Shown piece after piece: positions 48,201 through 54,200 of a stretch of DNA of 64,000 bases (the stretch's first letter is position 1; every line of letters begins with the position of its first letter). The notes under the pieces are model-generated. The model made no database searches, was not told the origin of the DNA, and was given only the letters and a program-made list of their open reading frames with translations. The position numbers were made by a program, and so were the translations under genes. The DNA lies in the NCBI GenBank assembly GCA_051362555.1, contig CM120645.1:23216934-23280933 (forward strand), written 5' to 3'. This stretch comes from Lingula anatina (lineage: Eukaryota > Animalia > Brachiopoda).

Positions 48201-51200
48201 ATATGTATACAAGTACGACACTCTTGGTATAGATTGCAGATGGAAGTCTTTCAGATTTATCCTGATAGTTGGATAGTTGGGTGTTTAGATATACCCCCTG
48301 GATCCCCCCTCTCCCCCACCCCTTGTGGACATTTTATTATTAGGATTTTTTTAAAAATCCACTTTCATCCCTGATAAATAATGTTCTTTTTCACAGGTTA
48401 TTTAAAAATGATGCACATGTAGCTCAGACAGTGCTTTTTATTCAATGTTTTTGCCCACAGAGATGAACATAATATAGCTGTATGGGTTTTTTTGAAACAA
48501 ATTAATAAAGGCAGCATATGAATGGAATGGTTATTGAATTAGTCGATACTGAAATAGAATTATTTTTATTGTGTGATTTCAGAAATTCAATTGTGATTTG
48601 GTTGATATGATAATCATATTTTGCTGACATAAAATTTATCATTTTGTGATTGAAACTGAAAGCTGTACAACAACAACAGCAACAACAAAATAAATAAGTA
48701 AAATAAATTTCAAACATTTGTGGAGAAACCCTGCCAGTCACTGCAGCTTGGGTTAAGGGTGGAGGAGATTTATGGAAAAGCACCTGTTAATCCTGCCATC
48801 CTCATAGGGTCAACCCAGCTGATTTTTACACAGGTGCTTTACCATGTGGTACCTTGAACCCAATCAGAAAGACTTGCTTCTCAGTGGATAAAGCTACTAG
48901 TAGTTCTATTGGGTTGAACTCCAAACACTTTGTGTTGAAACCCACTTGTACTCTAGGATGTGGTACATCTTGCCTAACTCTAGCACTTGAGGAAGACTAG
49001 AAGATCTCAGCGCTACCAGCTCCACAACGCTGCAAGGTGGCCATGTTGTCTCCCTTCAGCTACATTGAGGTCAATTTTTATCTTGGAAAGTTACCTTGCT
49101 TTTCTGAAGAACTAATTAAGTAGAGCAATATTTAACATTGGTTCGATGATGGGTGATTTGATGTTTTCAAAATTATTTTCAAGCATTGAATATATCAGGA
49201 GAAGGGATTTTTTTTCTCAGTTTCAGGTTTTTTCCTAACCACCAAGGGGCCCATATTTCACCAGGCAAAAAAGCGTGTTCCTTGCAGCTGTCTCTGTTGA
49301 CTTCAAAGATTACGCGTTTTGAATGCCAGTGTGATTAATTTATTGATCTTGGATGTACTGCAATTATCACTAGATGAAAGGGACATTTTTCTTAATCTTA
49401 TTCATTAATAAAATGTGACAAGAAAGCTACGCCATACATTAGTTGGCATTGCCACTGAAATTTGCCTCAATGATTTCTGATGTTTTTTAATCTACAGGAA
49501 GTTAAGAATTGCATACATAATTTGAATGACTGTTATTTTAGTAATGTTACAAATATATATTATCTTAATTTCCTGCATATGTATGACTATAAAGTGATCA
49601 GTGTTAATGGTTACATTCTATCTGTATCACATCACACCCAGTGCAGACAAAATGGCTGCCTCGTATTTCACCTCCTCTGTAGAGATGTAGAGATTGTATA
49701 GACTTAATGTACTTCCTTCATTGTTGGTAGTATCGCTGTTGTAAGTTGGAGAAATCTGTTGACGAGTCTGTCCGGACAAGGTCCAAAAGGTGTTGTCAGC
49801 TGCTGACCAGAAACGTTGATGTCCTGGATGCCAGGGGGCTCTGAAATCCACTCCAAAACTCAGCAGCATAGCAGATTAGCTCAGGACTTTGGTTTTTTGA
49901 TTAATTAATTAAACTGGTCAGCTGATTGAAAAGACTCCTTTTCGGGGTTTAAATTGGACCTTGTCTGAATTGACCATATCATGAAATGTATCTTTTCATT
50001 GTGCTTTTGCATCAAAACTAGGCTTTGGTGAACAAATTTGGCAGAGATTGGTGGTCTTCTGCAGGCAACTGCTGTAAAGCATCCCACTGGGAAATTTATG
50101 TTTATTTGTGAATAAACTTAAAAATAAGAAAAAAAAAGAGTAATGCTCAATGTCTTTGTAAAACAATACCTTTTGAAAGCTTACTTTAGACCTCAAAACT
50201 TAATATGAAAAATTTAGAGAAAAAAAATGGATGTAATTTCCTGCAGAAGACTTCTCAGATTGTCCACTCTATTTGATGTACTCTTTGGCAGCATTCACAA
50301 TCAAAGTTGATCCCTGGACTAACAGATCCTTGGATCAAACATGGCCGACTCACTTGAAAGCTACTGCGTAATCCATGCGGGAATCTATTCAGTGTTCTAT
50401 TGGGGGATTATGTGTCAAGTTTTCAATTGAGTCGGCCATATTAAATCCGCAGATCTGTTAGTCCGCGGATCAACTTGTTCTGAATCTGCCTTTTGTTTTC
50501 TTGTCTATGCAAAGTCCTCACTGTCTTGTTTCAGTTATGGTGACATTACCCCAGAAACCATTATGGGAAAAATAGTGGGTGGTATTTGCTCCCTTAGCGG
50601 TGTGTTGGTGATCGCGCTTCCAGTCCCTGTCATAGTGTCAAATTTTAGCCGCATTTATCATCAAAGTCAAAGAACCGACAAACGCAAAGCGCAGAAGGTA
50701 CGTAAGCTAGCTAAAGGCAGAGGGCCACACAGACACCGATGTCGGTGCATCGGGCTCTCAACACTCCACCACATAATACAACAACACATGCATGCATCAG
50801 CTTTTCTGTTCATGTTGTTTTCACTATTACGTGTCTCTCTCTTTCTCTCTCCCCACTCCATACATTCCCAGTGTTAGTTACCTGTCCCCTGCACTGCCTG
50901 GTTCGTATCTTTCCTGACCTTCCTAGTCAGTGTTCACCGTCGGTGTCCTGGGCTGTGCTATATATGTATCTTCCTCTGTGCTGACTGCCATCTTGGCTGA
51001 AGCATTATGGGATGCATGTTATGCGCCAGGTTTGGGATATCCTGTGTGTCGTAGGACCATCGTTGGTTGTATTTAGAGCTTCTGACTCTACTAATATTAA
51101 TGATTTTTTGCACCAATTTTTTTTTGCAGTTATGGAGATATCGTCCCCAATACAATAACAGGGAAATGCGTGGGTGGTATTTGCTCACTGAGCGGTGTGT

Positions 51201-54200
51201 TGGTGATCGCGCTTCCAGTGCCTGTCATTGTGTCAAATTTCAGCCGTATTTATCACCAAAATCAAAGAGCAGACAAACGAAAGTCTCAAAAGGTATGATT
51301 CATGTCTCTCAATGAACGTTCCTTTGAAAGCAAGTTTGCTATCAGCATTTTGGCTTACAAACGGCTGCTCAAAAATCCATGCAGACTTCTTTAAATGTGG
51401 ATTGAAAGAATTACATTAAAAGCTATCGAGGATTTCACAAGGATTAACACAGTAATGTCTGTGCATTCGGACACCATGCTTTCGTTGCCCACTGCTGATA
51501 CATAAAAAATAGTTATCGAAGACACATACATGCACATGCAGAGTTGCCACCTACTTGTACACGCACATGCTGAGTTGCCATGCAACTTCACATATTCTAC
51601 ATACTATTTAGGACAGTTTTCCATTGTTTAAAGGACTAATGCAATTCTATTGTTAATAGATCTTTGCATTTTGAGCACATTCATGTTGCCAAATCAACAT
51701 TTGCAGACACGCACACACGTACATGCACGTGCACACACATTACATTAAACATGAGCTAGAAGACCTATACAACTATACATAATGCATGATTGAATAATGT
51801 ATGACAAATACTGCGGAGCATGAAATATGCAGGTTTATAATAAATCACTCCTTTCTCAGGAACATTAAAACTTCATTAGCTATGCACAAAAGCCTTCAAA
51901 TACTCCCTCATTTTGGAAGCTGTGTATTGTTGTATCAGCGTTCATCTTAAAAAGATGTCATTGGTGAAATTGTCAATAATAATAATAATAATAATCTTTA
52001 TTGAGCACTTTGTGTACAAGTTACATTTTACAGGCTCTCTACTCTTATCGTAACGTCTTTATAACAACTACAAAATTATACTAAGTACATATGGAATGAT
52101 TACTGAAAAGTAGCACAGAATAAAACAACTATTGCTATCATGTTACATACAAATGAGACTCTCTGATATATAAATCATTCAGTTACCACTACAAATTACA
52201 CAGATAAAATGAAGGTGACATATCAGAAGTGTAAATTTTCATCTAAAATTAGTTCAAAGTCATAAACTACTCCTTTATTGAAGTGAAGTCTGGCAGTTGG
52301 TATCTGTGTGTTAGAGAAAGGATACAAAATCAATAGTGCCATGATCAGCTGTCCTCATTTACTCCCTGATATAGCAGTGGGGAGTAATGTCTGGGTAGTT
52401 CTTCATAGGTTTGAAGTATGAAATTAGGGACAGCTATTAACAGGGATTAAGAAACTAACAGGGAACTTCATTGGGGATGTCATCTTTGTGGACCCAAGCT
52501 TCCTTATCTTGTACTGGCTTGGGGAATGACTTTAACATTGTTACACATAAACCTAAAAAAAAAAAGAGAAAAAAATCTATACTTAGATAAAGCTGTACTT
52601 TAAACACAAGCACATCTGGTTAAAAACAGACACAGAAATCAAACCAGCAAAAATAACCTAGATTCTGGACAAAGTGAGAGATATTGTTAGTGAACAGTCT
52701 GGCGCTACCTGAAGATTTCACACCAATAGATGGAGACACCTGTTAACCCTGCGGCCAAAAATTTCAAGGGGTAGAGGTTGGGGGACGAGTCATTTTAGAT
52801 TTTTTTATCACAAAATCCGTGTGGGCCTTAGTGCTTGCATAGCACCCTGATCCAATTTTGACTCAGAGCAGTTCTTTTCTGGTCACAAGAGTGGTTTGTG
52901 TGTACCCCCCCCCCACCCCCCCCACCCCCCCCCCCCCCACCCACCCCCACCCTTACCCACTTCTCCCACCCATCTGCCATTTCTAACAACTGCATGAGGG
53001 CGGAAAAAAGTTAACATGAACCAACAGTTCAAGGAATGCTTTCAGGATTACCAGTCTTACTGTATACAAAATGTTTACGTCTGTGGTTTATTACTGTACA
53101 TGCAGAGTCCATAGGGAATAATGTCACCTGTCTAAATTAGTCATGGCATACTAAGTACTGAAGAATTAAGATGAAATGTGTTGCCAGGAGTTGGTTTAAA
53201 GGCTGGCAGTCAAGTATACCCTTTCCCTTTTCCCTCTAACATGTACGCAGGCACGCACACACACACACACACACACACACACTGTCATGCAAAGACTCAC
53301 CTCATATACACAAACACCACACTCACACACGGATACACACACACACTTGCACACATCACACATGGACGTGTATTCTCACACTCATGGACACGCACATACA
53401 CATTTACACACGCATCATTCATAGACATGTATCAGCTCACACCACATGTACACACACTGGACAAAAGAAGTGTCACCCCTACTGAGCCAATACTATGGGG
53501 GAGATAAATGACTGCGGAATGATATGCTCCTGGTATCATTTTATTAACATCAAATTTCACAAAAAATCACAAAATGAGAACAAAATATACATTCTACCAA
53601 AATATGCAGTTTCAAGTCCAAAATTAGCACTTAGTGGCATAGCCACGTGACCTAATAATAGGTGCCAGTCTACGAAGCAAGGTTTCATATAATTGTCTGA
53701 TGCGTTCAGGGCTAATGCTGTCCCAAGCATGAAACACTGAATATAATAGAGTTTCTCTGCTGGTTAGGCGGGCATTTGTAAAAAGTTTTGACATATCATT
53801 CCACACATTTTCTATTATGTTTGCATCCGGACTCTGGGCAGGCCACATCACCCTGCAAATGTCCTGTTGGTCAAACCAATCATCAACTGCTCTGGGCCTG
53901 TGACAAGGAGCATTGTCATCCTGGTGAACAAATGGATAATTCCTGTCACCAAACATGTTAGTAATAGATGGTAGCAAGCCTGACTCCAAAACATCGATAT
54001 ATTTCTAGTGATTCATGTTTCCATCAACCACTGTCAATTCGCCCAAGCCATGGATGCTGATGCAGCCCCACACCATGACGAATATGCTGCTCCGGGTTCG
54101 AAAATTAAGTGCATGTGGTTCAAATGCTTTACCAGCAGTTTGCCAGCATAGTACCCGTCTGTCATCAGAGGTCAGACCAAAGCGACACTCATCAGAAAAA

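Follow-up and report, generated by a model that had tools for sequence, protein, structure and literature searches.

Tandem pore-S6 exons in a Shal/Kv4 gene of Lingula anatina: sample-dependent use and a predicted difference in channel inactivation

Introduction

Kv4 channels set the firing rate in neurons and in the heart. In the brachiopod Lingula anatina, the Shal/Kv4 gene has two consecutive versions of the exon that encodes part of the pore and the S6 helix, and the question raised by this locus is whether one gene makes two different channels by selecting one version or the other. The DNA analysed here, referred to as the window, is a stretch of 64,000 nucleotides (nt) from GenBank assembly GCA_051362555.1 (contig CM120645.1, positions 23,216,934 to 23,280,933 of the forward strand). 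It is likely that the single Shal/Kv4 gene in the window has a working pair of tandem pore-S6 exons whose use depends on the sample, yielding two subunits with a predicted difference in inactivation.

Gene identity and exon layout

The gene is Lingula anatina Shal/Kv4, in agreement with the identity given to it by the first-pass annotation, which had been made from the sequence of the window. The peptide of exon 1 is 100% identical to that of Shal isoform X1, and the closest solved structures in the PDB are those of Kv4.3 (E 4e-250) and Kv4.2 (8e-247), followed by Kv2.1 (7e-94) and Shaker (2e-77). The precomputed domains of the protein (P0005) are PF11601, PF02214, PF00520 and PF11879, i.e., the Shal N-terminus, T1, the six-helix core and the Kv4 C-terminal domain. 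There are three isoforms in the RefSeq cluster of L. anatina Shal. Isoforms X1 (XP_013382119.1) and X2 (XP_013382127.1) comprise 625 amino acids each and differ at exactly the seven residues by which the two exon copies, here called A and B, differ; isoform X3 has exon A and a different last exon, resulting in a shorter C-terminus and a length of 553 amino acids. A five-exon model of the window gave isoform X1 letter for letter with exon A, and isoform X2 letter for letter with exon B. The pair is thus already present in RefSeq as a prediction. The features of the gene, with their evidence in brackets, are:

23105..24213, + strand: coding exon 1; N-terminus, T1, S1-S5 and pore helix, to the first Gly of GYG (peptide identity to isoform X1; loose read ends next to exon A)
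50535..50697, + strand: exon A; YGD filter, P-S6 loop, S6 and cytoplasmic S6 helix, with Thr at the Shaker-449 site and Thr at the Kv4.2-419 site (isoforms X1 and X3; junction reads)
50698..51129, + strand: A-B intron, 432 nt (zero RNA depth from 50714 to 51127 in four of four runs)
51130..51292, + strand: exon B; the same segment as exon A but nearer to the family consensus, with Val at the Shaker-449 site and the rare Cys at Kv4.2-385 and Ser at Kv4.2-424 (isoform X2; exon-confined depth)
56559..56745, + strand: exon 3, common (first 30 bases equal to the loose ends behind exon A; gene model)
58103..58251, + strand: exon 4, common (gene model)
60674..60724, + strand: alternative last exon of isoform X3, coding part (17 of 17 residues of the X3 C-terminus matched by tblastn)
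63249..63518, + strand: last coding exon of isoforms X1 and X2, through the stop codon (gene model)

Structure and conservation of the two copies

Exons A and B are intact tandem copies: adjacent, homologous, and equal in length and phase. Each comprises 163 nt, with AG before it and GT after it, and the two starts are 595 nt apart, as had first been described. The last two bases of exon 1 open the codon for the first Gly of the GYG filter, and either exon A or exon B alone finishes the filter and holds the frame into exon 3. Assembly of the frames confirmed the earlier deduction that the inclusion of both copies, or of neither, results in a frameshift, with early stops 220 and 323 nt upstream of the last junction. 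By the usual rule, such distances between stop and junction would suffice for nonsense-mediated decay.

The copies differ in 31 of 163 bases and in 24 of 54 codons. Of these codons, 17 are silent and seven are replacements, the latter being exactly the seven residues that the first-pass annotation had listed. The rates of replacement and silent substitution (NG86 method) are dN 0.096 and dS 0.89, giving a dN/dS of about 0.11, which is a pairwise value and does not separate the two branches. The view that both copies are under purifying selection is borne out. Codons 14-43, the core of the gate, encode an identical protein in A and B. In a check for gene conversion, a run of nine identical codons between A and B was found (p 0.066). 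By blastn, likeness between the copies is found only between 50526-50700 and 51121-51295, i.e., from 9 nt before the exon to 3 nt after it, and the flanking introns are without similarity. A likeness with such limits speaks against two alleles having been placed next to each other. A third copy was not found when the whole window was searched by tblastn with both peptides (next best E 0.76).

RNA evidence for either-or use

RNA was taken from four of nine L. anatina raw-read runs, representing three studies; about 6% of runs X1, X4 and X5 and 25% of run X7 were read. Depth over exon A was 4.6-7.8 in run X1, 1.3-3.9 in run X4 and 5-9.6 in run X5, with zero over exon B in all three, whereas in run X7 depth was 2.7-5 over exon B and at most 1 over exon A. 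For this shift between run X7 and the others, Fisher's test gave p 7e-5, or 0.011-0.038 if numbers are halved for overlapping mates, peak depths being used as proxies for read counts. Junction reads connect exon A with exon 1 (seven in run X1, four in run X5; one silent difference in the last 30 bases of exon 1) and with exon 3 (five in run X1, six in run X5). The sole variant seen in exon B, at 51154, is silent and occurs in five of five reads of run X7. A joint between A and B was not listed in any of the four runs, at a depth below 10 and with three reads needed for a joint.

Each copy is present in spliced RNA: exon A by junction reads on both sides, and exon B by exon-confined depth together with RefSeq isoform X2. 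Because the edges of depth over exon B are sharp and isoform X2 uses this exon, its partners would be exon 1 and exon 3. The junctions of exon A that the first-pass annotation had proposed for mapping (24213-50535 and 50697-56559) were found in the reads, while those of exon B were not among the loose ends seen. Its claim that a productive transcript uses exactly one copy fits the observations that the runs cover A or B, that the intron between them is without depth, that no A-B joint was listed, and that isoforms X1 and X2 use one exon each. Either-or use of both exons is highly probable, and the choice between them is probably regulated by tissue or stage.

Residue changes and predicted channel effects

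In an ungapped alignment, exon residues 1-54 correspond to Kv4.2 373-426, and residues 1-49 to Shaker 445-493. The changes between A and B are at the Kv4.2 sites V377 (T/V), K379 (E/N), A382 (M/T), I385 (I/C), N416 (S/N), A419 (T/A) and A424 (A/S). The expectation that the two products have different outer pores holds for four of these seven changes, which are in the outer pore or at the start of S6; the other three are on the cytoplasmic extension of S6. The V377 site is that of Shaker T449, where exon A has Thr and exon B has the usual Kv4 Val. In 120 distinct other Shal/Kv4 segments, Val is found at the 449 site in 116 and Thr in four; Cys at the 385 site is found in two, and Ser at the 424 site in one. 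With each of the three distal S6 changes, one of the two copies gains a Ser or Thr in a basic surrounding, and these Ser and Thr residues may be kinase sites.

Several of these sites have known effects in other channels. The Shaker mutation T449V nearly abolishes C-type inactivation, and Kv4 channels carry Val at this position (PMC2222907, PMC3358694). Human Kv4.3 with V374A, at the same site, is non-functional (PMC7862093). In Kv4.2, the cytoplasmic S6 helix bends at A419 when KChIP1 is absent (PMC8566240).

Isoform A, which has Thr at the T449 site and, two positions further along, Glu, is predicted to enter outer-pore (C-type) inactivation more readily and would differ in its sensitivity to external K+ and to pore blockers, whereas isoform B would be an ordinary Kv4-like channel. 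On the cytoplasmic S6 helix, the three exchanges involving Ser or Thr would alter the KChIP-modulated contact between S6 and T1-S1, or its phosphorylation. A measurable difference between A and B in gating or pharmacology is predicted, with a somewhat better than even chance. The exon swap alters the very residue that has long been cited as the reason why Kv4 lacks C-type inactivation, and isoforms identical but for seven residues provide a ready-made test of this idea, as well as of the role of A419 in modulation by KChIP.

Exon pairs in other animals

Among 25 species compared by their isoform sets, Lingula alone has two versions of the segment and each of the 24 others has one, numbers which reflect annotation and are no proof of a single copy in the genome. 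Lingula was the only named brachiopod among the sequences retrieved. A KCND2 model of Bugula neritina (KAF6039066.1; P0171) contains two diverged copies of the segment in a row, read through as one protein; this database model reads through both copies wrongly. A scan of metagenomes, led by the Bugula double, covered the best 80 of 536 relatives, 30 of the 80 having 1 kb on both sides, and is of a kind from which no frequency can be derived. Of these 80 loci, 74 show one copy, and six, from four distinct genomes, have two copies of 163 nt bounded by AG and GT and lying 76-192 nt apart. The four distinct doubles are:

L001:404-820
L002:1637-2037
L009:6019-6535
L012:1229-1676

The remaining two, L020 and L021, are counted together with L012. 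Exon 3 was found downstream in L001, L002, L009, L020 and L021, and not in L012, which is short. The four genomes are likely to be those of bryozoans, because their signatures are common with those of the Bugula copies.

The Bugula-type pair is probably the older one; within its four distinct loci, the two copies differ at 11-21 residues. The second copies share Cys at exon residue 21, and Leu-Gly or Leu-Ala in place of Tyr-His after the motif SNFSRI; three further proteins carry this second-copy form. The changes are near the gate, and likely amount to a larger functional change than that in Lingula. The Thr/Val contrast at the 449 site is present in four of six distinct pairs (Lingula, Bugula, L012 and L009), compared with Thr in four of the 120 other segments; Thr is in the second copy of Bugula and L012 and in the first copy of L009. 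Doubled segments in models of Pimephales, Papilio and Heliothis (P0170, P0172 and P0173) are identical or broken, and were set aside as probable artefacts of assembly or annotation.

Alternative explanations

Several observations count against two regulated, functionally distinct subunits in Lingula. Support for exon B consists of about five reads in one of the four runs and a predicted RefSeq model, with junction letters absent among the loose ends listed; a small share of double inclusion could escape detection at such read numbers; and the samples are coded, so that tissue, stage and population are indistinguishable in the shift between A and B. In Kv1.2, V381T alone leaves slow inactivation approximately as in the wild type, yet how other pore mutations act depends on it (PMC9539455). 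Furthermore, Thr at the 449 site occurs in Shal genes that are apparently single-copy, in freshwater snails, Bursaphelenchus, a hemichordate and one further record (P0214, P0224, P0229, P0191, P0192, P0421 and P0432). The slight effect of V381T is in keeping with another explanation, namely that both exons are used singly but encode near-equivalent channels, the pair being kept through partitioned expression rather than gating. The identity of the gate core points the same way, as does the presence of six of the seven A residues and all seven B residues among the 120 other segments, albeit often rarely. However, the changes are at sites of known effect, the Thr of A (4/120) and the Cys (2/120) and Ser (1/120) of B are rare, and the contrast of Thr and Val recurs in other duplicated pairs; near-equivalence is considered unlikely, though by no means far-fetched. 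That exon B is a relic or seldom used, leaving exon A as the sole working exon, would account for its zero depth in three of four runs and for the lack of B junction letters in the reads. Against this, B is the main form in run X7, where its edges are sharp, lies closer to the consensus than A, has one variant which is silent, and has accumulated 17 silent differences without a stop, an indel or the loss of a splice site; a relic is very improbable. Least credible of all is an assembly artefact that placed two alleles or haplotypes side by side: doubles made of identical copies are indeed known from databases (P0170, P0172 and P0173), but here the base difference of 19% is limited to the exon, the introns are dissimilar, and both copies were read in one sample (run X7).

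The age of the pair can be considered in a similar manner. As judged from the sequences of the copies, the Lingula pair is probably a product of the brachiopod line and the Bugula-type pair that of a separate duplication. Exons A and B differ in 31 bases with a dS of 0.89, which is below every value between Lingula and the eight Bugula-type copies with DNA (44-58 bases; dS from 1.06 to saturated). In a DNA tree of 49 rows, from which two near-identical double loci and repeated single-copy peptides had been left out, A and B join with support of 98/77. The Bugula-type second copies form a clade of their own, supported by 99/97 in the DNA tree and, with Bugula included, by 100/96 in the protein tree, and A and B both lack the signature of these second copies (Cys21, Leu41 and Gly/Ala42) as well as the Ser42 of first copies. 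The alternative is one ancient duplication in a brachiopod-bryozoan ancestor, the Lingula copies having later been homogenised by gene conversion. The doubling of the identical exon, with the same length and phase, in Bugula and in four Bugula-like genomes speaks for it, as do the run of nine identical codons and the Thr5 and Met10 that A has in common with some second copies. Approximately unbiased (AU) tests do not reject trees in which A or B is placed beside one or the other of the Bugula-type copies (p 0.23-0.44 for DNA, 0.35-0.39 for protein), and a 30-row protein tree is unresolved, A and B not being joined in it. A single shared duplication is nevertheless considered improbable. The trees are based on 162 bases or 54 residues, which is too short to settle the origin. 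A wider proposal would be that lophophorates underwent two or more duplications of the Kv4 pore-S6 exon and that the Thr/Val contrast evolved repeatedly, as a splice switch for C-type inactivation in a family thought to be without it. This proposal is rather unlikely. Two of the six pairs, L001 and L002, have Val in both copies, and the kinship of the pairs means that the count of Thr/Val pairs is not one of six independent events. Because of this relatedness, separate gains of the contrast perhaps number two to three, rather than four.

Comparison with known systems

The kind of splicing described here is well known, and Kv4 is a new family for it, as far as the literature searched shows. Substitutions of tandem duplicated exons are enriched in ion channels, where they are often convergent (PMC9741552, also citing Copley 2004). 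The tandem exons of slo/KCNMA1, para/SCN, Cav1-3 and NALCN are examples of the same genetic device. Human KCND has no entry in either of two catalogues of such exons (the supplement of PMC8373072 and the supplements of PMC5740500), which accords with the earlier statement that vertebrate KCND genes have a single exon here; Shal is not in one supplement file of PMC9741552, a partial source which may omit its fly gene lists. Literature searches revealed no paper on the Lingula Shal pair, its use or its meaning, nor any account of a pore exon duplication in Kv4, most subscription papers being outside the search, so that absence from print is unproven. Nothing on duplicated Kv4 pore exons was found in the accessible part of bioRxiv 10.1101/2025.09.16.676508, in PMC12823592 (terms absent) or in PMC2217041 (one match, in a reference). 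The first-pass annotation had named no Kv4 example: this stands for the literature searched, but both isoforms are already RefSeq predictions (automatic ones, with the same products as exons A and B), and the exon is also doubled in Bugula-type genomes.

Among the closest known systems is Drosophila Shaker, for which alternative splicing of the pore/S6 region had been noted. Its splice variants show a 100-fold difference in C-type inactivation via residue 463 (PMC2223370). The ShA and ShB forms resemble the Lingula pair in that a duplicated sequence covering S6 is picked by splicing, and the fly model P0321 is doubled from S6 to its end. However, Shaker is a Kv1 channel, and in that model the doubled part starts at Pro450, just past T449, and continues to the C-terminus, whereas in Lingula Shal the doubled part is an internal exon of 54 codons to which the 449 site belongs, and A and B both have Ser at residue 463. 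The Bugula-type pair is alike in that the same exon, 163 nt long and bounded by AG and GT, stands twice in tandem ahead of exon 3, with the Thr/Val contrast in three of five pairs, and unlike in its introns of 76-192 nt and its conserved, divergent second copy.

The Lingula gene provides a pore splice choice in Kv4 with RNA support, there being none in Kv4 according to the catalogues searched. With the second, probably separate, doubling seen in Bugula-like animals, Kv4 joins those channels in which the tandem-exon device recurs. The novelty is limited by the device being well known and by both isoforms being in RefSeq.

Selection of the exon and neighbouring repeats

With a length of 432 nt, the A-B intron is too long for plain steric exclusion, and the AG-free zone before exon B is 49 nt. 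Competing RNA pairing found no support: in five of five pairs of intron segments, there was no duplex above those of shuffled sequences (the best was matched by 2 to 13 of 20 shuffles). Most probably, regulated competition between the acceptors of A and B would select one exon, and transcripts with both exons or neither would be cleared by nonsense-mediated decay. An arm of 22 nt at 50166-50187, complementary to the exon B donor, was treated as chance.

Upstream of exon A is the following element:

50304..50476, no strand assigned: hairpin-shaped repeat, ending 58 nt before exon A, with 59-nt arms that are 83% complementary

Related pieces of this repeat are found at 8149-8350, and it draws partial reads from other transcripts, which carry pieces of it.

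The intron after exon B contains a perfect inverted repeat of 33 nt (53447-53479 and 54809-54841), the arms of which are 1329 nt apart and could be the ends of a mobile element. Elsewhere in the window, a tandem array at 5481-6148 comprises nine units of 74 nt with 97% identity, and intron 1 contains a minisatellite based on 15 nt at 30334-31120.

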